NCBI GenBank assembly: GCA_039932395.1
Contig: JBDTQB010000001.1
Coordinates: 1-59,439 of the forward strand
Source: Vicinamibacteria bacterium
Lineage (GTDB): Bacteria > Acidobacteriota > Vicinamibacteria > Fen-336 > JAGNNV01
Reading direction: 5' to 3'
Length of the DNA stretch: 59,439 bases
The translations under genes and the position numbers were made by a program. The notes below the pieces were generated by a model, which saw only the letters and a list, made by a program, of their open reading frames with translations, did no database searches and was not told the origin of the DNA. Position 1 is the stretch's first letter; every line of letters begins with the position of its first letter. This document shows positions 4,125 through 13,914 of the stretch, piece after piece.

Positions 4125-4709
4125 CTACCTACGGGCGGTGGGCGACGGGGTGGGTGACGGGGTTGACGGCCTGGCCACCGGCGTCAGCGTTGGCAATGGC
4201 CCCGGCGTGGGTGCTGCGGGAAGATTTGGAACCACGGTCACCGTGGGCAGGGCCGACGGCGGGGCCAGCGTCGGAACCGCACCTGGAGTCGGAAGCGTTG
4301 GCAGCCTCTGGATGACGATAGGCGTGGGAAGGATCGATACGGTCGGGATCGTGTTTGGCGTCGGAACGACCTTGGGTGTCGGGACGGTCTGCGGTGTCGG
4401 CACGACTCGCGGTGTGGGGACAGTGTTGGGTGTCGGGACGGTGCGTGGCGTTGGAACCGTGGCGGGGGTTGGAACGACCCGAGGTGTTCCGACGGCATTC
4501 GGGGTTGGGACCGTGCGTGGCGTGGCGGCAACGCGAGGCGTCGAGGCCGGATTCGCCTGAAGGGCAGGGCCAACGGCTGCGCGCACGAAAGCCGATGTCA
4601 TGGCCGTGATCATTGCCGCGACGGCCAGAAGAATCCAGAACGCACGACTCAGGTGCACAGTTGTATCCGAGGGACGATCAGTCGTTGAACTCCGCAGGGT
4701 GTGGCTCAT
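4125..4709 (-). CDS. Membrane-anchored Pro/Thr-rich hexapeptide-repeat protein, paralogue of 3705..4091
   Basis: The ORF runs to 4760, but the ATG at 4709 is preceded by GGAG (ggagtgatcATG). It has one TM helix (FWILLAVAAMITAMTSAF) followed by about 11 TPxxVP units. The alternative start is 4760. Confidence 0.65.
   Translation of the reverse strand: MSHTLRSSTTDRPSDTTVHLSRAFWILLAVAAMITAMTSAFVRAAVGPALQANPASTPRVAATPRTVPTPNAVGTPRVVPTPATVPTPRTVPTPNTVPTPRVVPTPQTVPTPKVVPTPNTIPTVSILPTPIVIQRLPTLPTPGAVPTLAPPSALPTVTVVPNLPAAPTPGPLPTLTPVARPSTPSPTPSPTARR
4341..4541 (-). repeat. 18-bp-period tandem coding repeat (hexapeptide TP-x-x-VP, about 11 units)
   Basis: Protein string TPRVAATPRTVPTPNAVGTPRVVPTPATVPTPRTVPTPNTVPTPRVVPTPQTVPTPKVVPTPNTIPT. 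The corresponding DNA shows repeated ggtgtcgggacggt-type units. Confidence 0.8.
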
Positions 4710-4853
4710 GATCACTCCTTCCTCCGGACTCGATTCCGAAGACATCCGTAGCAGAAGCACGATCGGTGCCTTGCATCTCTCGATCCACCGAGCCGTCAGC
4801 TCGGCGACAAGTCTCTGGAAAAGAAATGTTTAAGCCAGTCAAGTCCCAGACCC

Positions 4854-6179
4854 TTGTTGAGGCGTTTGTACAAAAAACCAAACGGGGAGGATCCCTGCGC
4901 TATCTTTCGCGCCGTGAACCGACTGCTTGGCGTTTTCCTCGCGCTGCTCGTCACTGCGTGCCGGTCGTCGGGCCCGCTTCAGCCTGGTCCGATCGCCGCG
5001 GATCGCGCGGCGCGTCCCATCGTGATTCTCGTGTCGATCGATGGCTGGAGATACGACTACTTCGGTCGTTTCAATCCTCCGACTTTGACGGCCCTCGCGA
5101 AAGACGGCGTGCGCGCGGAAGGTTTGATCCCTCAGTTCCCTTCGAAGACTTTTCCCAACCACTACACGCTGGTGACCGGACTTCGTATTCCGCATCACGG
5201 GATCGTGTCGAACAACATGGTGGCGCCCGACCTGCCGGGCAAGTTCACGATGTCGGCGCGCGAAGTGACCAAGGACCCGCGCTGGTGGGGTGGCGAGCCG
5301 ATGTGGAACACCGTCGAGCGTCAGGGCGGAATCGCCGCGGCCATGTTCTGGCCCGGTTCGGAAACGGTCATCGGCGGACATCAGGCGACGTTCTGGAAAC
5401 CGTTCGACGACACCATGCCCGATCACGAGCGCGTCGCCCAGGTTCTTGATTGGCTGCGCCTTCCCGAAGAGAAGCGTCCGTCGTTTCTGACCCTCTATTT
5501 CAGCGATGTCGATCACGCTGGCCATGACGTGGGACCGGAGTCGACCACTTCCAAGGAATTGCCTGAAGCGATCGCCAAGGTCGATACCGCGTTGGGCGAA
5601 CTGGTGAAGGGCGTCGCCGCGATCGGACTGAACGGTCGCGTGAACTACGTCGTGGTCAGCGACCACGGCATGTCGCAGCTCAGTAAGCAGCGACTCATCA
5701 TGCTCGATGACTTCATCGATCCGTCCACCACGCAGATCCTTGACTCCGGGCCGGTGCTCGCGATTTCGCCCAAGGACGGCGACACGGAGAAGCTCTACGC
5801 GGCGCTCAAGGGCCGCAGTCCGCATATGGCGGTCTATCGGAATGCCGAGATTCCTGCGATCTACGGACTCGCGGGGCATCCGCGCGTGCCCGCGATCATG
5901 GCCATCGCGGACGACGGCTGGTACATCACGTCGAAGCTCGAGGTCGAGCGCTGGAAGCCCTCGGGGATGCTGGGCGAGGGCGGCGCGCATGGATATGACC
6001 CGCGCCTGAAGTCGATGCACGGCCTTTTCATTGCGTCGGGTCCAAAGGTTCGCAACGACGGCGCGGTGGTGAAGCCGTTCGAAAACATCCAGGTCTACGA
6101 CTTCCTGTGCGTCCTGCTTGGACTCCGGCCGGCGGCGAATGATGGCGATCCTTCGCTCACCAAGGGCTTTCTCCGTTAG
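4854..6179 (+). CDS. Ectonucleotide pyrophosphatase/phosphodiesterase (NPP, alkaline-phosphatase superfamily), probable lipoprotein
   Basis: VILVSIDGWRYDYF, FPSKTFPNHYTLVTGL, GGEPMWNT, FWPGSE, YFSDVDHAGHDVGP and VVSDHGM are NPP-family motifs. Lipobox-like LALLVTAC. An alternative GTG start lies at 4914. Confidence 0.85.
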   Translation: MLRRLYKKPNGEDPCAIFRAVNRLLGVFLALLVTACRSSGPLQPGPIAADRAARPIVILVSIDGWRYDYFGRFNPPTLTALAKDGVRAEGLIPQFPSKTFPNHYTLVTGLRIPHHGIVSNNMVAPDLPGKFTMSAREVTKDPRWWGGEPMWNTVERQGGIAAAMFWPGSETVIGGHQATFWKPFDDTMPDHERVAQVLDWLRLPEEKRPSFLTLYFSDVDHAGHDVGPESTTSKELPEAIAKVDTALGELVKGVAAIGLNGRVNYVVVSDHGMSQLSKQRLIMLDDFIDPSTTQILDSGPVLAISPKDGDTEKLYAALKGRSPHMAVYRNAEIPAIYGLAGHPRVPAIMAIADDGWYITSKLEVERWKPSGMLGEGGAHGYDPRLKSMHGLFIASGPKVRNDGAVVKPFENIQVYDFLCVLLGLRPAANDGDPSLTKGFLR

Positions 6180-6189
6180 GGTTCTTCCC

Positions 6190-7143
6190 ATGGAACCGCG
6201 CTACGTCGTTCACACCGTCTTCCGCGAAGGCGTTGAATTCTTTCTGCTGGAAGACGGCACGCGAGCGGCTGCGGCGAGCGCGCCCTCGCTCGGCAACAAC
6301 CTCTTTCTCTACTCGGCCGGATTGCCGGTCCTTGAGCCCATCGCTTTCGCTGACTTCCTCAAGAAGCCGACGAGCTTCGGGATTCCGCTGCTGTTTCCAT
6401 TCCCGAATCGCCTCCGCGACGGTGCGTTCACCTTCCAAGGCAAGCGCTATGAGGTGAATCCGCCCCGCCACGGTTTCGTGCGTGACAAGGCCTGGAGGGT
6501 GATCGACACGGGGGCTTCGGTCAGCGAAGGTGCCTGGATCCTGAGTGAAATCAAAGCCGAGGATTATCCGCTCGAGATCCTGAGTCAGTTCCCGTTTCCG
6601 TTCACGCTTCAGACGACGTATCGGTTGCGCGAGGCGGCGCTCGAGATCCACGTCGTTGCGGAGAACACGGGGCAGGGCGACATGCCGGTCGGTTTCGGCA
6701 TTCATCCCTACTTCCGCCGTCCGGGCCGGGGAAGTGTTGAAGTTCCCGCGCGAAAGAGATGGGAGTTGAGCGACTCGCTTCCCACCGGAACTCTGCTGGG
6801 TGTGGACGGCGCGTTTGATCTGAGACAGCCAAGGGACATCGCGACGCTCAGCCTCGACGACATCTACGCGGATGCCATCCCGGATGAAGACGGGCTCGTC
6901 CGTTGTCGCTTGCGTGATGAAGTGACGGGCGTACAGACAGTCGTCGAGTTCAGCGCCGCCGAGTTCCCCGACATCGTGGTCTACACGCCTCCAGCACCCC
7001 GGCCCGCCATCTGCATCGAGCCGAACTCATGCCCAACGGATGCCTTCAATCTTCACGAGCGCGGAGTGGATGCCGGCGTGCTCGTCCTGAAGCCAGGCGC
7101 GAAAGCCGAATGGAACGTTCGGATCTTCTCGGAGCCGCTCTAG
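6190..7143 (+). CDS. Aldose 1-epimerase (galactose mutarotase-like) family protein
   Basis: The ATG at 6190 (MEPRYVVHTVF...) lies just after the preceding stop. FGIPLLFPFPNRLRDG, GKRYEV, HGFVRDKAW and GFGIHPYF are typical of the aldose-epimerase fold. Confidence 0.8.
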   Translation: MEPRYVVHTVFREGVEFFLLEDGTRAAAASAPSLGNNLFLYSAGLPVLEPIAFADFLKKPTSFGIPLLFPFPNRLRDGAFTFQGKRYEVNPPRHGFVRDKAWRVIDTGASVSEGAWILSEIKAEDYPLEILSQFPFPFTLQTTYRLREAALEIHVVAENTGQGDMPVGFGIHPYFRRPGRGSVEVPARKRWELSDSLPTGTLLGVDGAFDLRQPRDIATLSLDDIYADAIPDEDGLVRCRLRDEVTGVQTVVEFSAAEFPDIVVYTPPAPRPAICIEPNSCPTDAFNLHERGVDAGVLVLKPGAKAEWNVRIFSEPL

Positions 7144-7190
7144 CCCTTCGACTGTGACGCCCACAGACTCCTGCTCAGGGACCACCCGGC

Positions 7191-7247
7191 CCCTATCAGT
7201 CTGGACTTACGCTGGGCCGCGCTGGATCAGGCGGATGGCGATCGAGC
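7191..7247. repeat. Left copy of a 57/56-bp direct repeat; an orphan duplicate of the rapA 3' end
   Basis: Aligns with 11145-11200 with 3 substitutions and one 1-nt indel (counted by hand). On the minus strand it reads ..IAIRLIQRGPA-TAA. Confidence 0.9.
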
Positions 7248-7311
7248 AACGGGGAAGACGCCGATTCCGATTGAGGATTGGCGAGAAGTCGCCGACAAAG
7301 GGTTGGACGCC

Positions 7312-7746
7312 TCAGGCGGAGGTTCGGCGATGCGGTCCCGGGCGGTCACGGAGAGCGTCAATAACCCGCACGTCTCGAAAAGACTTCAAGCGACGGTCGG
7401 CCGTGAGGTAGCCATCGACTTCATATTCAGCCGCGGTCGCGAGATGCAGAGCATCGGGCGATCTGAAGGGATACGTGGCGCGAATTTCAGCAGCTCGCCG
7501 GACGACCAGATCATCGAGATCGAGAATCAGAATTTCAGAAAGCGCGGCTTCCGTGCGTCGCTTCCGTTCGATGTCTTTCTTCTTGATCGGCCCAACCAAC
7601 ACTTCAAGGACGGTCAATCTCGACGTGACGAGGAGAGCACCCGGTTGTGTGGCGTGCCAGTCGAGCCACCTGCGAACTGGGTCTCGGAAACGGGGGCTGG
7701 CCGCGATGTTGTAGACGATGACGTTGGTATCGAGATAGAGAATCAT
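7312..7746 (-). CDS. vapC: PIN-domain ribonuclease toxin (VapC family), full length
   Basis: MILYLDTNVIVY.. N-terminus, ..S.L...E.. centre, DALHLATAAE and YLTADRRL C-terminal acidic positions. ATGA overlap with the upstream antitoxin ORF. Confidence 0.85.
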   Translation of the reverse strand: MILYLDTNVIVYNIAASPRFRDPVRRWLDWHATQPGALLVTSRLTVLEVLVGPIKKKDIERKRRTEAALSEILILDLDDLVVRRAAEIRATYPFRSPDALHLATAAEYEVDGYLTADRRLKSFRDVRVIDALRDRPGPHRRTSA

Positions 7747-8045
7747 CTATCCCAGTCGCCACGGACCTCATCGATTTCGCGGTCTATTTCTGCGGCGGAC
7801 ATGCTGCCCGGAGGCAGGGTGTCGAGGAGCGCCAAGAATTTCTTTGGATCTCCTCGCCCAGGCGTTCGAGCGAGCGCCGCTCTGATCCTGCGGGAGCGAA
7901 CGGGCTTGGCGATCGTAGCCGGGGATCCTGACTTGTACTTCCGAGTCGCGAGCGCTGGCATTGAGGAGTCCCTTCTACGCTTTGATGCTACTACCGCGTC
8001 AACGGACTCGAGAAGGATGACTGGTTCCGAGGGTTCCTTCATCAT
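7743..8045 (-). CDS. Antitoxin-like small protein coupled to vapC (module 1)
   Basis: Start taken at ATGATG (8045/8042). Its stop overlaps the vapC start (ATGA at 7743-7746). The C-terminus AAEIDREIDEVRGDWDR resembles the antitoxin at 8251..8469. The 122-aa form in the track would overlap the upstream stub. Confidence 0.65.
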   Translation of the reverse strand: MMKEPSEPVILLESVDAVVASKRRRDSSMPALATRKYKSGSPATIAKPVRSRRIRAALARTPGRGDPKKFLALLDTLPPGSMSAAEIDREIDEVRGDWDR

Positions 8046-8254
8046 TGAAGTCCCCACCCCAAACCCCTCCCACGAAGCGAACGGCCTGTCAGGATCGGCA
8101 TCACGAGGCATTCGGCGCGTGCGAGCTGGGACGCCAACAGGGTTCCGCCTGGGGTGTTCTCGGCTCGTTCTACCCAGCTGACGGCAGCGTCATGTTCCGC
8201 GTAATGCGCTTCGACGCAGAGTCTGAGGATGCTCGTATCGAGGTAGAGCTTCAC
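8042..8254 (-). pseudogene. Truncated PIN-domain toxin (N-terminal about 58 residues of a vapC paralogue plus a short unrelated tail)
   Basis: (GTG)KLYLDTSILRL...PGGTLLASQLARAECLVMPI aligns by eye with the N-terminal half of the intact VapC (ILYLDTNVI...PGALLVTSRLTVLEVLVGPI). It stops after 70 codons, so the C-terminal acidic residues are missing. Confidence 0.7.
8045..8070. repeat. 26-bp C-rich (minus-strand G-rich) direct repeat, copy 1
   Basis: ttgaagtccccaccccaaacccctcc versus ttgaaatctccaccccaaacccctcc at 8994-9019, 24 of 26 identical. Confidence 0.85.
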
Positions 8255-8469
8255 CGCTCCCAGGAGTCTCGCTCTTCCTTCAACTCTGCGGAGATCTCAG
8301 CGCCGGTGCGGGTGCCTTTGGGCATGTTGCGAATGTATTCCGACATGGACTTGCGTGGAGAGGCGGGGGCATATGCGACGACCTCGACTCGCTCGACTTG
8401 GGGAGGAAGGGGCGCGTCAAGATGGATGACTCCGTTCTCAACGTGTGCGGCGATTTTGAATGCGTCCAT
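8251..8469 (-). CDS. Antitoxin-like small protein (module 2)
   Basis: The ATG at 8469 is preceded by AGGAGG (caggaggtctgccATG). It reads MDAFKIAAHVENGVIHLD... The C-terminus GAEISAELKEERDSWER matches the module-1 antitoxin. GTGA overlap with the downstream PIN stub. Confidence 0.7.
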   Translation of the reverse strand: MDAFKIAAHVENGVIHLDAPLPPQVERVEVVAYAPASPRKSMSEYIRNMPKGTRTGAEISAELKEERDSWER

Positions 8470-8498
8470 GGCAGACCTCCTGAACGGAACCGATGCTA

Positions 8499-8681
8499 CT
8501 ACGCGCGCCGCTTCGAGAAGGAGGGAGAGTTTCGTCTTCTCTCGATCAGAAAGAGCTCTGGTTCCACGAGGCTGATTCGATCTTCTCTGTAGAGGTAGAG
8601 AAGGTGATTGGCCTTTTCGTTGCCCGTTGTCTCGCGAACAAACCATTTGACCGCGACGCTCGCATCGATGACGAATCGCAA
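8499..8681 (-). pseudogene. Truncated PIN-domain toxin (N-terminal about 47 residues, then an out-of-family tail)
   Basis: TTG start 3 nt after the upstream antitoxin stop. RFVIDASVAVKWF...LVEPELFLIE is a classical VapC N-terminus. The ORF ends after 60 codons, immediately before the SD of the next antitoxin. Confidence 0.65.
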
Positions 8682-8684
8682 GCT

Positions 8685-8915
8685 CTACTCGACTCCGTCT
8701 CGCCATTCTCGGATCATGTCGGCGCTATCCGGAAGTTCTCCGTTGCGCTGGAAGATACGTTCTCGGCGCGCCGCCATGCGCTCCATCAACGAATCTCTTT
8801 TGACTGCGACGGTGGACGCCGAGCCCTTGGCGAGTTGCTCGATGTGGGACTCGATCTCGCGCTGCTGCTGAGGCGTGAGGGACTTGATTCGTTCGATGAG
8901 TTCAGTGGTGCTCAT
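8685..8915 (-). CDS. Antitoxin-like small protein (module 3; addiction-module-component-like)
   Basis: 76 aa, MSTTELIERIKSLTPQQQREIESHIEQL.., with an AGGAG SD (caggagtccatATG). It sits directly upstream of the PIN stub in the usual antitoxin-toxin order. Confidence 0.6.
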   Translation of the reverse strand: MSTTELIERIKSLTPQQQREIESHIEQLAKGSASTVAVKRDSLMERMAARRERIFQRNGELPDSADMIREWRDGVE

Positions 8916-8993
8916 ATGGACTCCTGATAGCGCCCGATGGTACTAGTCAAGCGCCTTCAACAAGGAAGGCCGAATCCGTCGCGTCGCTCTTCC

Positions 8994-9019
8994 TTGAAAT
9001 CTCCACCCCAAACCCCTCC
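8994..9019. repeat. 26-bp C-rich direct repeat, copy 2
   Basis: See 8045-8070. The two copies bracket exactly the two decayed TA modules. Confidence 0.85.
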
Positions 9020-9341
9020 AGGTTTCACCTACTGAGTTCAATGTCGACTTCACCGCGAACGCCCTGATATTGCCTGTCGTGCGGATCAGGCGAGTGGTTA
9101 CGGGTTTCGTGTCGGACGCTCAATGCGTCTCAAATCCCGTCGAGTGGGCCATGCGCGATTCCACCGGGCGGAGCCATGGCAGACTACTCTGACAAAGCGG
9201 ACGATAGGTTCGAGACTTTTGGCGACGGCCTTACGATCGCAGGATGGATTCCCGCCAATGCGTTGGGCTCGAAGACGGGGGGCGGCGGCACCGACGGCAG
9301 CGTATCGAGATGGGCAAGTACACCGGAGCGGATCACGGAGC

Positions 9342-9674
9342 ATGAAACAAATCTGGGGAACAAATGCGCCATCCGATGGAACGCGCGCCAGGCGGACGCG
9401 TTACTGGGGTGAATTGGCGAGCTGGTATCCGGCGCTATCGTACGCCGCTGGGGTTGCGCCGGTGGCAAGCTTTAGTGCGCCAGATGCTCAGCTGTCTGCT
9501 GAGATGTTTGGCCTCCCCGTCCTCGGACGCAACATCGACTTCAGTTTGATCGGCGGGACTTCGGACTTCAGCGTCAGCGAGGGCTTTTTTTCCTCGCATT
9601 CGTACCTGAACGCCCGCAAGTTCTCGACGGTCTGGAAGGGCTTCCGGGCGATGCAACAGTTGTTCTCCTACTAG
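9342..9674 (+). CDS. Hypothetical protein (orphan), possibly co-transcribed with the HEAT-repeat membrane protein
   Basis: The ATG is preceded by GGAGC. The 3' half has G/C-rich third positions (FGLPVLGRNIDFSLIGGTSDFSVSEGFF..). Its stop lies 1 nt before the GTG of the next gene. I recognise no family. Confidence 0.3.
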   Translation: MKQIWGTNAPSDGTRARRTRYWGELASWYPALSYAAGVAPVASFSAPDAQLSAEMFGLPVLGRNIDFSLIGGTSDFSVSEGFFSSHSYLNARKFSTVWKGFRAMQQLFSY

Positions 9675-9675
9675 G

Positions 9676-11100
9676 GTGGGGCCTGCGGGTTTCTTCGTTG
9701 CTGCGGTGCTGGCGGCAGGGCCAGTTGAGGAGGCAGTAACGCGCCTTCGCGAGCCGCCCATGAGAGAGGCGGCGATGGCGGATCTTGTGCGAATGGGCCC
9801 GCCCATTGCCCTTGACCTTGTGAAGGCAGCCCAAGGAGCCTTGTTGCCCGTACAAGCAGCGATCGTGGACGTTCTTGTTCAGATTGGGCCGGCGGGACTG
9901 CCGGAGCTTTCTCGGTGCTCAGTTCCAATGTTTCGAGATGAATTCTCGGAGTGCGATTTCGCGGTTCGAGCGGTGCAGCGAATGGGGGACGAGGCTTTGA
10001 CTGTTTTGGAGGCGTGGGCGCCGGAGCCAAGCTCTGCGCGGGCCTCTTTTGCCTTGCACTGCCTTCGCTCGTTTGGGCCGAAGCGCTCGCTTTCTGTATT
10101 GGAGCGGCTAACACGGCATCCGGACGAGAGGGTACGGCGGGACGCCTTCGGCATCATCGCTTCCTGGAACGATCCGATGATTGGTGACGTATTGGTGAAA
10201 GGGTTAGAGGACAGGGATGGGCCTATTGTGTCGAAGGCCCTGACGGGATTGAGAAAGATTCGCGACAGGCGCCTGATTCCCGTGGCGCTAACACTCGCCG
10301 CCGATGATCGAAATGGAGGTCTTCAAGAGGACGCTGTAGCGGGTCTTGGAGTGTTTTTCGGTCGTGAGTTACTCCAACCTATCCTAAGAGTTGCCAGACA
10401 AGCTCCTGATGTTGGCGCTCGGCGGACGGGGGTGAGCACACTTGTTTGGGTGAAGGATTCAATCGCGAATCGACTGGGCCAGCGTTATGACGTGATCACA
10501 GTCGACCCCGGCGCTCAGCCCGGAATATGGATGCGGCATATGGTGCAGTTGGGCGGAACGGCGCTGTTCGTGTTTGTGTGCCTTCGGCTCGCGGCCTTGA
10601 TTCCGCTGGGAGTGTTAGTAAGCGGTTGCGTGCTTACCTCGGCCGGGTACTTTTGGGGGAACGTGATCACAAAGATCAACGGATCGGTGGAGCGCGAATT
10701 GTTGTTGTTGATGATTCCATGCGTGTGGCTCGTTGCGCGGATTCTTGGGGTGAAGTTATTGGGCCTAGCCGACCTCGCGATGCCGTTTGTCCTGGCAATG
10801 GGTGGCGGCTTGGTTGCATCCATTTGCGTGTTCGCGCTCGGGCAATTCAGAGCGATCAATGCCGTATTGTTATCGCAGTATGGCTGGGTTCTGGTCTATA
10901 CGGGATTGCTGTTCGGTGCGGCCATAGGATTCAGGCGATTTCTGTTTCGGCAAGAGGCGAAGAAGGTTGTGGCCCTGGAGCACAACGTGAAGTTCACACG
11001 CCTCGCAACTGTTGGCTGTGTAGCTTTTTACGCGGGCTATGTCTTCGGCTGGTGGAGGCTGTGGGACTACTCGTCGGACGCATTCCGGTGCCTGCTGTGA
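9676..11100 (+). CDS. HEAT-repeat domain protein with a C-terminal polytopic membrane domain
   Basis: The N-terminal half has HEAT-like units (LTRHPDERVRRDAFGIIAS, LEDRDGPIVSKALTGLRKIRDRRLIPVAL, DDRNGGLQEDAVAGLG). The C-terminal roughly 190 aa form about 6 hydrophobic helices. GTG start. Confidence 0.6.
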   Translation: MGPAGFFVAAVLAAGPVEEAVTRLREPPMREAAMADLVRMGPPIALDLVKAAQGALLPVQAAIVDVLVQIGPAGLPELSRCSVPMFRDEFSECDFAVRAVQRMGDEALTVLEAWAPEPSSARASFALHCLRSFGPKRSLSVLERLTRHPDERVRRDAFGIIASWNDPMIGDVLVKGLEDRDGPIVSKALTGLRKIRDRRLIPVALTLAADDRNGGLQEDAVAGLGVFFGRELLQPILRVARQAPDVGARRTGVSTLVWVKDSIANRLGQRYDVITVDPGAQPGIWMRHMVQLGGTALFVFVCLRLAALIPLGVLVSGCVLTSAGYFWGNVITKINGSVERELLLLMIPCVWLVARILGVKLLGLADLAMPFVLAMGGGLVASICVFALGQFRAINAVLLSQYGWVLVYTGLLFGAAIGFRRFLFRQEAKKVVALEHNVKFTRLATVGCVAFYAGYVFGWWRLWDYSSDAFRCLL

Positions 11101-11144: not shown

Positions 11145-11200
11145 CCCTATCAGTCTGGACCTACGCCGGGCCGCGCTGGATGAGGCGGATGGCGTCGAGC
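11145..11200. repeat. Right copy of the direct repeat; it forms the functional 3' end of rapA
   Basis: Contains the rapA stop (TAG, 11161-11163) and the last 13 codons (..LDAIRLIQRGPA). Confidence 0.9.
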
Positions 11201-13914
11201 CGCAGTCGCGCGGCGGAGAGATGTTCGTCGAGCGCCGTCTTCTGCTCGATCAGCAGGTCAACCTCTTCGGGCCGAACGCTGCGATTGACCTTCTGAAGAT
11301 CGCGCAGACGCTGGATCTCCTGATCGAGTTGGTCCGCCATGGTCTTCCTGGCCTGGAGGACCAGCGGCGGCACGCGGCGATCGGCGATCGACTGGGCCTT
11401 GGCGATCAGCGAGGGCAGAAGCTCTTCACGGACTTCCGGCCGCTGCAGGATGGACGTATCGCCGCGTCGCAGCAACGGCGTCATCATCGCGGTGGTGATC
11501 GCTGTACTCGCATCTCCACCCCGATGATCGAGCATGACGCGGATCGGCGTGGGCGGCAGGAAGCGATCGATATGAAGGTGAAGCGGGGCCACGCATTCCA
11601 GAACGTAGACCGCTTCCACGTACAGCGCGGAGGTCCTGCTGTCGGGCCATTTGGCGAAACTGCTGTTGCCATTCTGAGAGCCCAGGACGAGGTCAATCGC
11701 GTTCGTCACAAGCGGATGATCCCAGGTCAGAAACTGAAGATCCTCACGTGACAAGGCTTTCGTGCGATCGGCCGTCACGGTAAGTCCGTCCGCGGGAAGG
11801 CCGGGGAAGGTGTCCGCGAGAACGCCGGCCGAACCTAGCTGGTAGGTCCGCGGCGCGATTTCCTCCACCTGGATGGTGAAGTGATCGAACGCCGCGATCA
11901 TGAAAGCGTCGAGCGACTGATCCTGATCGCGATCCTTGATGTCCTCAACCAAGTGCGCCGCGACTTCGGGGCGGAAGGAGTTCAGCTCAAGCAAGCGATC
12001 GCGCCCGGTTTCCAGGCGACTGCGCAACGCCTCACCCGCGGAACGCGTTTCGGAGATCAACGTCTCGATGGCCGCGCGCGCGTCGGCATCCGAATCGGGG
12101 AAGGCGCGCGCCAGATCTCGCACGCGATCGCCAAACAGGTCGAGCAGCTCATTGCCGCTGTTGAGATTCTTCTCGAACGAGTTGAGGCCCTCGTTGAACC
12201 AGCGCGCCAGAACCTCCTGCGGACTTCCCGGCACGAAGGGAACGTGGACGTGAATCTCAGAAGTCTGCCCGATGCGATCAAGCCGGCCGATGCGCTGTTC
12301 GATCAGTTCGGGATCGAGCGGCAGATCGAACATCACCAGGTGATGGGAGAACTGGAAGTTCCGGCCCTCGCTGCCGATCTCCGAGCAAATCAGCAGACGC
12401 GCCCCACCCTCTTCCGCGAAGTAGGCCGCTTGTCGATCGCGTTGGACCAGCGTTAGCCCTTCATGAAACATCCCCATCCTGATCTTGATGAGATCGCGCA
12501 TCGCCGCTTCGATCGCTTCCACCTTCTCGCGCGTGCGGCAGATCAGCAGCACTTTCGACTTCTTGTGGGAACGCAGCAGGCTGATCAGCCAGGGAATCCG
12601 CGGGTCGGCGGTGAAGTCCGGCTCGAAGATCGATTCCTTCACCGGCTTGATGTCCGACTCGAATTCGTCGCGCACCCGTTCGAGCAGCGTGCCTTTGTCG
12701 CCTTCAAATGTGAGGGGAACAAGATGAGCGACGCGATTCGGAAATCCCGTGATGGTGGCGCGTGTGTTGCGGAACATCACGCGGCCGGTGCCGTGCTGAT
12801 CCAGCAGGTCGGCGAGCGCTTTGCGATCGGTCAGCGCGGCCGCTTGCTTCGCGACCTCGCGGTACGCCTCCGTCTCTCGCGCGAACTCGGCCAGATCGTG
12901 GAAACGCGCGGGGTCGAGCAGGCGCAGACGCGCGAAGTGGCTGGCGATACCGAGTTGCTCGGGTGTCGCGGTGAGAAGCAGCAAACCGGGAGAGGATTTG
13001 CTGAGCGCCTCGACCACCGTGTATTCCGGGCTGGCCTTCTCGGGCGTCCAGCCGAGATGATGCGCTTCATCCACCACGACCACATCCCAGCCAGCATCTA
13101 CGGCCTGTTTAACGCGGTGGGGGCGCTGAGTGAACAGGTTGATGCTGGCGAGCACCAGCTGATCTTCGAGGAAGGGATTGGCGCCGGGATTGGCCGCTTC
13201 AATCGACGCGCAGCGCTTCTCGTTGTAGATGCGGAACCAATGATTGAAGCGACGCAGCATCTCCACCAGCCACTGATGAACCAGCGAGCCCGGAACGAGC
13301 AGCAGAACACGATGGGCGCGGCCGGTCATCAGGAGACGGTGAACCACGAGACAGGCCTCGATGGTCTTGCCCAGGCCCACTTCATCGGCAAGCAGGACGC
13401 GGGGGACCAGTCGGCTCGATGTCTCCGACGCGATGTAGAGCTGGTGTGGAATCAGGTCGATCCGGCCACCCACGAAACCACGGACCCGGGATCGACGCTG
13501 CCGATACTGAAGATCCAGCGCGGCAACTCGCAGATCAAAGACATCCGGCGCGTCCGTCTGTCCGACCAGGAGACGCTCCTCGGGCTTGTTGAAACTGATC
13601 GCGTCGCTCAGGTCGCGCTCGCTGATCTCGACGACCGCGCCGTCACGAGAGCCTTGGTAGTGGAAGAGACCTTCCCGCTCGACCACTGCGGTGATGCGCA
13701 GCGACGCGTTCGCGCGATCTTTGATGGTGTCGCCTGCGTGAAAGCGCACGCGTCGCAGAGGCGCGTTGTCACGAGCGTACTCTCGGGTCTCTCCGCTCGC
13801 GGGGAAAATCAGCTTCACCCGCTGCGGGTCAGCGCTCTGGATGGAGCCGAGCCCGAGTTCTGGTTCGGAGTCGCTGATCCAGCGCTGGCCGGGATGAAAG
13901 AGAGAGTCGGCCAA
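11161..13914 (-). CDS. rapA: RNA polymerase-associated SNF2-family ATPase RapA (HepA)
   Basis: Collinear by eye with E. coli RapA: GQRWISDSEPELGLGS, LIPHQL, VLLADEVGLGKTIEA, QWLVEMLRRFN, VVVDEAHHL, LLLTATPEQLG, HFARLRLLDP, LLCSEIGSEGRNFQF, QRIGRLDRIGQ, FLPPTPIRV. Confidence 0.95.
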   Translation of the reverse strand: MADSLFHPGQRWISDSEPELGLGSIQSADPQRVKLIFPASGETREYARDNAPLRRVRFHAGDTIKDRANASLRITAVVEREGLFHYQGSRDGAVVEISERDLSDAISFNKPEERLLVGQTDAPDVFDLRVAALDLQYRQRRSRVRGFVGGRIDLIPHQLYIASETSSRLVPRVLLADEVGLGKTIEACLVVHRLLMTGRAHRVLLLVPGSLVHQWLVEMLRRFNHWFRIYNEKRCASIEAANPGANPFLEDQLVLASINLFTQRPHRVKQAVDAGWDVVVVDEAHHLGWTPEKASPEYTVVEALSKSSPGLLLLTATPEQLGIASHFARLRLLDPARFHDLAEFARETEAYREVAKQAAALTDRKALADLLDQHGTGRVMFRNTRATITGFPNRVAHLVPLTFEGDKGTLLERVRDEFESDIKPVKESIFEPDFTADPRIPWLISLLRSHKKSKVLLICRTREKVEAIEAAMRDLIKIRMGMFHEGLTLVQRDRQAAYFAEEGGARLLICSEIGSEGRNFQFSHHLVMFDLPLDPELIEQRIGRLDRIGQTSEIHVHVPFVPGSPQEVLARWFNEGLNSFEKNLNSGNELLDLFGDRVRDLARAFPDSDADARAAIETLISETRSAGEALRSRLETGRDRLLELNSFRPEVAAHLVEDIKDRDQDQSLDAFMIAAFDHFTIQVEEIAPRTYQLGSAGVLADTFPGLPADGLTVTADRTKALSREDLQFLTWDHPLVTNAIDLVLGSQNGNSSFAKWPDSRTSALYVEAVYVLECVAPLHLHIDRFLPPTPIRVMLDHRGGDASTAITTAMMTPLLRRGDTSILQRPEVREELLPSLIAKAQSIADRRVPPLVLQARKTMADQLDQEIQRLRDLQKVNRSVRPEEVDLLIEQKTALDEHLSAARLRLDAIRLIQRGPA

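Follow-up and report, generated by a model that had tools for sequence, protein, structure and literature searches.

Probable toxin-first decay in a tandem VapBC-type array of an Acidobacteriota contig, and the conserved leader element that precedes its cassettes

The window analysed here is an entire 59,439-nt contig (JBDTQB010000001.1) from a single metagenome-assembled genome (MAG) of a Vicinamibacteria bacterium (Acidobacteriota). In a chromosomal gap between an aldose-1-epimerase gene and a HEAT-repeat gene, the minus strand (7246..9019) carries three tandem toxin-antitoxin (TA) cassettes of the VapBC kind, in which an antitoxin gene (A1 to A3, in reading order) is followed by a gene for a PIN-domain toxin (T1 to T3). 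The last cassette, A3-T3, is complete; A1 and A2 are full-length antitoxin genes whose toxins survive as N-terminal stubs. A copy of one non-coding leader, here called U, lies upstream of each antitoxin, and both stubs run out inside a leader copy. We conclude that the locus is probably a decaying three-cassette VapBC array that lost two of its toxins by deletion. The array leaves our understanding of TA biology unchanged, but it provides a dissected case of toxin-first decay, with one complete module, two successive orphans and mapped junctions, from a poorly studied soil phylum. What is new here, and more worth follow-up than the array itself, is the conserved leader element. Coordinates are collected in Table 1.

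Table 1. Features of the array, its flanks and related loci. Positions without a prefix refer to the window; L003 to L024 are labels of comparison contigs.
Feature	Position	Strand	Description
Leader U_A	8916..9019	-	upstream of A1; direct repeat and leader alignments
Antitoxin 1 (A1)	8685..8915	-	76 aa, full length, orphan (toxin truncated)
Toxin 1 stub	8499..8681	-	60 codons; codons 1-47 (8681..8541) are PIN N-terminus
Leader U_C	8470..8540	-	upstream of A2; 3' part only; leader alignments
Antitoxin 2 (A2)	8251..8469	-	72 aa, full length, orphan
Toxin 2 stub	8042..8254	-	70 aa; codons 1-54 (8254..8093) are PIN N-terminus
Leader U_B	7962..8091	-	upstream of A3; part of hairpin loop; 5' partner strands missing
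Antitoxin 3 (A3)	7743..7961	-	72 aa; start corrected to 7961
Toxin 3 (T3)	7312..7746	-	complete 144-aa PIN/VapC-type toxin
Conserved 3' flank X	7246..7288	-	downstream of last cassette
Aldose 1-epimerase	6118..7143		Pfam match
HEAT-repeat membrane protein	9676..11100		Pfam match
RapA	11161..13914		Pfam match
Full leader element copies	L003:3540-3715; L007:3175-3350; L011:6720-6900(-); L013:3283-3460; L018:4275-4455; L019:271-450; L021:8522-8698		seven copies
Left-boundary sites of element	L003:3150-3540; L011:6905-7100; L013:3100-3285; L018:3795-4275; L019:1-270; L021:8400-8520		
PF05635 genes	L003:5774-6298; L007:5054-5464; L011:5595-6140; L016:1022-1540; L018:4544-5065		

One complete cassette and two orphan antitoxins

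All six open reading frames (ORFs) that a first-pass annotation had listed on the minus strand are present, and homology of every part bears out its description of three tandem PIN-type modules in which two toxins lack the C-terminal catalytic half. T3 matches PF01850 with an E value of 1.4e-17 and 64.9 bits (cut-off 23.6) over profile positions 2-117 of 120, and the acidic quartet D6, E48, D98 and D117 falls at the conserved positions in sequence and alignments. This full-domain match, together with four predicted active-site acidic residues, assigns T3 to the PIN/VapC toxins. We found 24 homologues of the same length, none more than 76% identical, and an exact look-up of the T3 sequence gave no match.

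The start of A3 required correction. The gene had been drawn as 7743..8045, but in the unrelated metagenome contigs L003, L007 and L008 the gene that precedes the T3 homologue encodes 72-73 aa (69, 63 and 60% identity over the full length), and in an alignment of the three window leaders the ATG at 7961 lines up with the A1 and A2 start codons. Both observations place the start at 7961 and leave 7962..8045 as conserved non-coding leader, so that the stop of stub 2 within an ATGATG, formerly read as coupling to A3, is a coincidence. Exact look-up of three possible forms of A3 returned no match. Antisense or upstream ATGs in a conserved leader can evidently mislead start-codon calls. A plus-strand translation of 7858..8046 (..SAALILRERTGLAIVAGDPDLYF..) was considered as an inverted PIN C-terminus and rejected: it has no Pfam match, and the minus strand here encodes the conserved N-terminus of A3 plus leader, which makes the plus-strand reading an antisense artefact. 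We also noted a 292-aa open frame on the plus strand (7303..8181), antisense to T3, A3 and the leader and partly PIN-like by eye; lacking profile support, it is a spurious long antisense ORF in a GC-rich contig.

Measured against homologues that are paired with complete PIN genes, the antitoxin ORFs are intact, as first described. Over aa 1-73, A1 shares 51% identity with 72-aa antitoxins that sit ahead of full-length PIN genes in L016 and L019. A2 has the same length, 72 aa, as antitoxins that overlap full-length PIN genes in L013, L021 and L023, and shares 55-58% identity with them; an exhaustive HMMER search of 1.84 billion representatives recovered only 22 relatives of A2, mostly of 72-79 aa, and A2 has the expected residue at all four positions that are invariant in an alignment of 17 family members. 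The coupling signals stand as well. A1 and stub 1 are joined by TAG, 3 nt and TTG, A2 and stub 2 overlap by GTGA, A3 and T3 overlap by ATGA, and each arrangement recurs in homologous cassettes.

None of the three antitoxins could be assigned to a described VapB-type family (AbrB/SpoVT, RHH, Phd/YefM, DUF2281 and others): nothing rose above threshold in described antitoxin families, and nothing was significant against PDB sequence profiles. A2 and A3 have no family match in Pfam or NCBIfam, and A1 reaches DUF2281 at E 0.18 (best family member E 0.0066), below the cut-off. An AlphaFold (AF2) model of A2 (pLDDT 87) has an N-terminal beta-hairpin and two C-terminal helices; a Foldseek search ranked VapB chains of VapBC complexes first, at a non-significant E of 0.57. 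With no described family matched, an antitoxin role rests on conserved, translationally coupled pairing with PIN genes, and by this context (a small coupled gene upstream of a toxin, in a conserved pair) A1 to A3 are putative type II antitoxins. A1 and A2 are deposited as hypothetical proteins ABI672_00050 and ABI672_00040. The C-terminal motif AEI..E..E.R..W.R, once attributed to A1 and A2, is instead common to A2 and A3 (E 1e-5), where it falls in the C-terminal ~35 aa. Similarity between A1 and A2 is undetectable; A1 belongs to a family distinct from those of A2 and A3, and T1 falls in a PIN subgroup other than that of T3.

Two toxins survive as N-terminal stubs

Homology of the stubs to PIN toxins was established through full-length relatives, because the stubs are invisible to direct profile searches: neither matched anything in Pfam, NCBIfam or PDB sequences, even at E<=10. 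The PF01850 search that had been proposed as a check on the stubs accordingly retrieved neither of them, an outcome that on its own would point away from a PIN origin that is genuine. For annotation, the lesson is that toxin remnants of 50 codons escape profile searches. Stub 1, deposited as hypothetical protein ABI672_00045, matches over aa 1-49 columns 1-48 of 144 in a profile of 142-144-aa PIN toxins (hhalign probability 97.4%, E 1e-11), and tblastn gave 50% identity over 44 aa to an annotated VapC on a Rubrobacter plasmid. Stub 2 is 63% identical to aa 1-54 of the 138-145-aa T2 toxins of L013 and L021 (E 2.7e-19); its resemblance to the N-terminus of T3, seen by eye in the first-pass annotation, amounts to 35% identity over 54 aa (E 3e-8). 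Full-length counterparts of both stubs exist in other contigs, at 142-144 aa for T1 and 138-145 aa for T2, and are PIN proteins by Pfam (PF01850, 36.7-49.1 bits).

Of the PIN acidic quartet, each stub retains the first Asp and the Glu but has neither the third nor the fourth acidic residue. The stubs derive from PIN genes without encoding a complete PIN domain, and would be catalytically dead. The chance that the 60- and 70-aa products nonetheless function as small proteins, for example as PIN N-terminal fragments that titrate antitoxins, is close to negligible. Both start codons are coupled to an antitoxin as in intact cassettes, but the 5.8 billion clusters searched hold no protein of like length and sequence besides the stub itself: a word-indexed search with stub 1 found no same-length homologue other than itself, and for stub 2 a word-based search found no homologue and an exact look-up no match. 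Moreover, the tails of both products are translated non-coding leader, and the toxin remnants found elsewhere differ in length (11 codons in L007; roughly 60, frameshifted, in L024).

Both stubs end inside a leader copy

Alignment identifies three copies of U in the window, each comprising all or part of a G-rich core, a pyrimidine box (CCTTCCTT / TCCTTCTCGA), a TAGTAGNATC box 21-26 nt ahead of the antitoxin start codon, and a Shine-Dalgarno sequence. U_A and U_B share a 63-nt direct repeat (8957..9019 and 8008..8070) that opens with the 26-mer GGAGGGGTTTGGGGTGGRGAYTTCAA, which occurs twice in the window against an expectation of 0. U_A has its core at 9019..8994 (GGAGGGGTTTGGGGTGGAGATTTCAA), followed by the CCTTCCTT box and a TAGTACCATC box (8945..8936); upstream partner strands are absent or decayed, and an nhmmer profile aligns over positions 187-219 of 219. 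In U_B, which aligns over profile positions 148-219 of 219, a core with four G-tracts (8071..8045, GGGAGGGGTTTGGGGTGGGGACTTCAA) is followed by the TCCTTCTCGA box and a TAGTAGCATC box (7993..7984). This core is identical at 29/29 positions to that of L013, while adjacent coding DNA is ~67% identical. U_C has lost the G-rich core by deletion and retains a CCCTCCTTCTCGA box, a TAGTAGCATC box (8501..8492) and an AGGAGG Shine-Dalgarno sequence. Each antitoxin in the window has thus kept the pyrimidine box, the TAGTAGNATC box and the Shine-Dalgarno sequence, which form the promoter-proximal part of U.

The two truncation junctions can be read directly from these leaders. PIN homology of stub 1 ends at about 8541, and from 8540 onward the sequence is the 3' part of U (U_C); this supplies the final 13 codons and, as the stop, the leading TAG (8501..8499) of a TAGTAG box. 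Homology of stub 2 ends at 8093/8092, and from 8091 onward the sequence is the loop and 3' arm of the U hairpin, then the core; the tail (LTGRSLRGRGLGWGLQ) and stop are read from U_B, and the residues RGRGLGWG, formerly called a junk tail, are translated leader core. The sequence at the stub 2 end-point is also found in the T2 pseudogene of L024 (...TGCCTCGTCATGCCGATCC, ECLVMPI), where it continues as toxin. Both junctions fall inside the leader, at distances of about 71 nt (8541/8540) and 130 nt (8092/8091) from the downstream ATG, rather than directly before the next ribosome-binding site as first described. Across the window, the junctions cut into the leader element to three differing depths, none of them at its canonical end. 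Microhomology of 3-4 nt is possible at both truncations, though relatives this distant do not allow it to be established. A scan found no sigma-70 consensus promoters and no terminators at the junctions.

Deletion explains the junctions better than insertion

We propose that two independent deletions each removed ~270-290 nt of 3' coding sequence from a toxin, together with the spacer and the beginning of the leader that follows. The ORF of each stub ends at the first in-frame stop inside that leader. Toxins would be lost first, because loss of an antitoxin while its toxin is active would be lethal. Surviving deletions would end inside the leader, because longer ones would silence the next antitoxin, with lethal effect at least for A3/T3. 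The apparently regular truncation point, previously held up against random decay, would then reflect a constraint on deletion end-points and no site-specific mechanism. That earlier argument rested partly on the mis-set start of A3, and a constraint on end-points explains the pattern better. A1 and A2 would be orphan antitoxins, possibly still expressed, and either useful or merely not yet eroded.

The first-pass annotation had also offered serial insertion, in which mobile leader-antitoxin-toxin units entered a resident toxin gene and cut it just upstream of the incoming leader. We consider this distinctly improbable. It would account for each stub ending exactly at the start of a leader copy, and outside the window the leader and its cargo occur, like a mobile element, in unrelated contexts beside 5'-truncated genes. 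The otherwise syntenic contigs L011 and L021 differ by an A2-T2 cassette, and in L024 a unit of core, A1-like gene and T1 is flanked, by eye, by two transposase 5' ends. However, tblastn with full-length relatives detected only the stubs, and no 3' remnant of T1 or T2 lies downstream of the supposed inserts or elsewhere in the 59-kb contig. Losses at the left end of the leader are also unequal, with ~150 nt of a ~177-nt element gone at U_B and the core gone as well at U_C; neither transposition nor site-specific insertion predicts this, since an inserting unit should bring a complete end. There are no terminal inverted repeats and no attC-like site, and no recombinase was noticed between the two flanking genes scanned, although recombinases were not systematically searched. 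Overall, the absence of 3' toxin halves and the three depths of leader truncation favour deletion over insertion.

Several points weigh against the deletion account. All of the evidence is one MAG contig, and the closest relatives in the collections searched share only ~50-76% protein identity, so that the pre-deletion state is not reconstructable and breakpoint positions carry an uncertainty of a few nt. Two G-rich cores, identical at 24/26 positions and 949 nt apart, bracket A1, stub 1, A2 and stub 2, and recombination at U could have contributed to the assembly or remodelling of the array. Formally, an insertion might also have occurred, with the displaced 3' halves of the toxins lost afterwards. 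Stub 2 shows little excess divergence; the deletions may therefore be recent, and the intact antitoxins may say nothing about selection. Finally, we only infer promoter function for the retained part of the leader.

An assembler might also have joined different TA loci at shared leader repeats, given a MAG contig and a leader core repeated at several loci, but we judge this highly improbable. The exact stretch common to the two window cores is at most 17 nt (GGAGGGGTTTGGGGTGG), probably shorter than the k-mers that metagenome assemblers typically use; junction 1 lies where the core is absent; and equivalent truncations are found in the independent assemblies L007 and L024.

Complete and decayed cassettes in other contigs

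Counterparts of all three cassettes are found complete elsewhere. A1-type genes precede full PIN genes of 143-144 aa behind leader U in L016 and L019, and a full PIN gene also follows in L024. A2-type genes are paired with PIN genes of 138-145 aa behind U in L013, L021 and L023. A3-T3 pairs lie behind U in L003 and L007, two contigs that were retrieved via T3 homology and not via the leader. L008 contains complete A3-T3 and A2-T2 pairs; it begins at A3, and its leader is not visible. All of these pairs are coupled by a 3-nt gap or a 4-nt overlap.

Decayed cassettes are found alongside the complete ones. In L007 (3392-4688), an A1-like gene is followed after 3 nt by an 11-codon PIN stub (MEFIVDANVAL) that starts with TTG and runs into a decayed leader, and downstream come an intact A3-T3 pair and a second A1-like gene without a toxin. 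In L024 (3600-5550, minus strand), an intact A2-like ORF precedes a T2 pseudogene with frameshifts and an in-frame TAG; the core, A1-like gene and full PIN gene of this contig lie between two copies of a transposase 5' end (..LPVRFRVRGLKDLVTERLANRVIL..), as judged by eye from translations. L013 represents a different mode of cassette loss: downstream of its intact A2-T2 pair, an 18-residue C-terminal remnant of T3 type (4342-4395, 78% identical to T3 residues 118-135) is all that is left of a cassette, with no antitoxin and no 5' portion of the toxin. The flanks of the leader element are syntenic between L011 and L021, but the slot holds A2-T2 in L021 (8700-9781, 1082 nt) and 344 nt without TA genes in L011 (6376-6719), a presence/absence polymorphism of the cassette.

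Among the ~14 cassettes inspected across these contigs, an intact antitoxin ORF is accompanied by a broken or missing toxin in 5, and the reverse is seen in 0. Such an asymmetry would be expected if a cell with an active toxin cannot survive losing the antitoxin. The suggestion in the first-pass annotation that toxins eroded while antitoxins were kept thus fits the anatomy of the window and recurs in the unrelated contigs L007 and L024; the selective retention that it attached to this suggestion is a separate matter.

Such retention, with A1 and A2 kept for anti-addiction, as anti-phage decoys, for cross-neutralisation of T3 or for regulation, seems to us somewhat unlikely, although it has points in its favour. 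A1 and A2 are full length, retain family-invariant residues, and have their own Shine-Dalgarno sequences and leader boxes. A1-like and A2-like orphans recur in L007 and L024, and roles of this kind have been proposed in the literature. A2 and A3 have their C-terminal ~35 aa in common, and T2 and T3 are paralogues, which makes neutralisation of T3 by A2 conceivable. A1 is unlikely to act on T3, since it resembles neither A2 nor A3 and T1 belongs to another PIN subgroup. On the other hand, the 54 toxin codons of stub 2 likewise contain no stop or frameshift, and their divergence exceeds expectation only slightly, so intactness may simply reflect recency. Where module 2 is intact, conservation of the toxin N-terminus exceeds that of the antitoxin by 2 percentage points in the closest comparison and by 16 and 29 points in distant ones; the corresponding excess for module 2 of the window is 5-15 points (n=3 comparisons), a weak hint that constraint on stub 2 may be relaxed.

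The leader is part of a conserved ~177-nt element

U precedes A1-, A2- and A3-type cassettes, with three unrelated antitoxin families among them, in at least 10 other Acidobacteriota contigs, where it forms the 3' part of a conserved element of ~177 nt with a sharp left boundary. Seven full copies have a common fold of 43 pairs in six helices, made up of a 5' stem with a nested inner hairpin, two inner stems, a CCCCTCCCC/GGGGAGGGG hairpin, and a long-range stem that pairs CCACCTCG with TGGGGTGG. Base pairing is found in 93.7% of cells, versus 42-51% when the partners are slid, and double changes affect 7 pairs versus 2.5 in shuffles, with 0/500 shuffles reaching the observed value. Taken from seven related sequences, this evidence is suggestive of a conserved structure, and several conserved G-U pairs indicate the cassette-sense strand. 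All window copies lack the 5' partner strands, so the structure cannot form there, and as single sequences the truncated window copies do not fold with unusual stability (z-scores -0.5 to +1.1). The leader core is a canonical four-tract G-quadruplex motif (GGGAGGGGTTTGGGGTGGGG), one of 3 in the window. Rfam 15 gave nothing at the gathering threshold in the window, only a chance match inside T3 for 6900..9400 at E<=10, and nothing at E<=1 for the element in six loci. The element had no match in plasmids, and the core string had none in the literature searched.

At its left boundary (…CCCCGAGGGAGCGGA), the element in every case adjoins a gene that lacks its 5' end and runs away from it on the opposite strand. 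These genes comprise the C-terminus of a resistance-nodulation-division (RND) pump, a C-terminal stretch of ~120-150 aa of RpoC that matches beta' residues ~1250-1367 (E 4e-44), and a single giant gene for a surface protein, truncated at three different positions; all are in the same antisense frame. The boundary looks like a fixed element end with variable deletions next to it. We also considered whether the antisense strand codes for a peptide that continues into the truncated neighbouring genes, and rejected this: one frame is used throughout, but L003 lacks an ATG and L019 is frameshifted. Genes for 23S_rRNA_IVP (PF05635) four-helix-bundle proteins lie near VapBC cassettes or the leader in five contigs, at distances from tens of nt (L016, L018) up to ~1.3 kb (L003).

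Part of the element has a wider distribution. A CCCCTCC-loop-GGGAGGGG hairpin followed by TTNGGGGTGGGGA occurs in L012, L014, L015, L017, L020 and L022, contigs that include Hyphomicrobiales, Sandarakinorhabdus and Crocosphaera watsonii, and in none of these is it beside TA genes. The presence of the hairpin plus GGGGTGGGG in alpha-proteobacterial and cyanobacterial genomes, in other contexts, suggests a family resembling repetitive extragenic palindromic (REP) sequences. In L015, the ORF adjoining the hairpin is DUF559-like, by eye only.

A bolder reading, which we regard as unlikely, is that the leader is what remains of a ~177-nt strand-specific structured element, with five nested helices and a four-G-tract core, that marks a slot for VapBC cassettes in Vicinamibacteria and could promote their gain and exchange as well as adjacent deletion. 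Recombination at the near-invariant core, or breakage stimulated by the hairpin or G-quadruplex, could provide the route. If so, the window array and its toxin truncations would be products of the element, which would represent a new cassette platform or a TA-associated RNA/DNA motif. If the leader governs expression or turnover of TA cassettes, it would offer a way to study how TA arrays in chromosomes are built up and trimmed.

Comparison with known systems

The array has the organization of type II VapBC systems, with antitoxin before toxin, a 4-nt overlap or 3-nt gap between them, antitoxins of 72-76 aa with a conserved C-terminal region, and toxins (T3 and the full-length T1 and T2 homologues) that match PF01850 above threshold and carry the acidic quartet. 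It departs from them in that its antitoxins match no described family above threshold and two of its three toxins are remnants.

Displaced, incomplete toxin modules also persist beside intact protective genes in the orphan toxin/immunity arrays that follow contact-dependent inhibition (CDI) and rearrangement hotspot (Rhs) loci. Those orphans lack the 5' end of the toxin and arise by recombination at a conserved coding region; in contrast, the two truncated window toxins lack the 3' end, and the shared sequence is non-coding.

Toxin-first decay that leaves orphan antitoxins is an already known process, and our case matches published surveys of orphan antitoxins (PMC7192599). In the Klebsiella pneumoniae survey, degrading TA pairs are among the possible sources of orphan antitoxins, for which anti-addiction roles have been proposed (PMC7192599). 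The window resembles those orphans in having intact antitoxin ORFs beside missing or broken toxins (PMC7192599). It differs in combining two successive orphans with one live module, head to tail, in having deletion end-points within a common leader, and in coming from an uncultured class of Acidobacteriota.

Tandem, co-oriented small cassettes separated by a repeated, hairpin-forming non-coding element, with a content that varies between genomes behind a conserved platform, recall the TA cassette arrays of integrons. However, the repeat in the window is 5' of each cassette and not 3', and it has promoter-like boxes. No R''(RYYYAAC)...R'(GTTRRRY) pair of attC type was found on either strand of 7000..9300 (0, with 0.14 expected in shuffles). 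No integrase was seen among the genes flanking the array or in the gene tables of the platform in L003 and L007; the rest of the window contig was not scanned for tyrosine recombinases. Complementary C- and G-rich arms (CCCCTCCCC / GGGGAGGGG; CCACCTC / GGGGTGG) and a core hairpin that also occurs in alpha-proteobacterial and cyanobacterial genomes in other contexts are reminiscent of REP sequences and bacterial interspersed mosaic elements (BIMEs). Unlike these, the Acidobacteriota version is a multi-helix element of ~177 nt whose left boundary is sharp and which is associated specifically with VapBC cassettes.

Genomic setting and the conserved 3' flank

The array has a GC content of 0.55-0.61, compared with 0.61-0.70 in surrounding DNA. 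The flanking genes with a Pfam match (aldose 1-epimerase, the HEAT-repeat membrane protein and RapA) are of ordinary chromosomal types. In the scan of flanking genes, the ORFs at 9123..9674 and 4839..6191 had no Pfam match, and neither tRNA genes nor Rfam families were found in the window. Downstream of the last cassette, segment X is 88% identical to L013 4293..4335, which follows the A2-T2 cassette of that contig. The same motif comes after T2 in L021 (~9480-9520) and directly after the leader in L011 (~6630-6670). Translated on the opposite strand, X reads ..IPIE(E/D)WR.., with substitutions that look like third-position changes. X may mark a cassette boundary or belong to the end of a gene that runs convergently.

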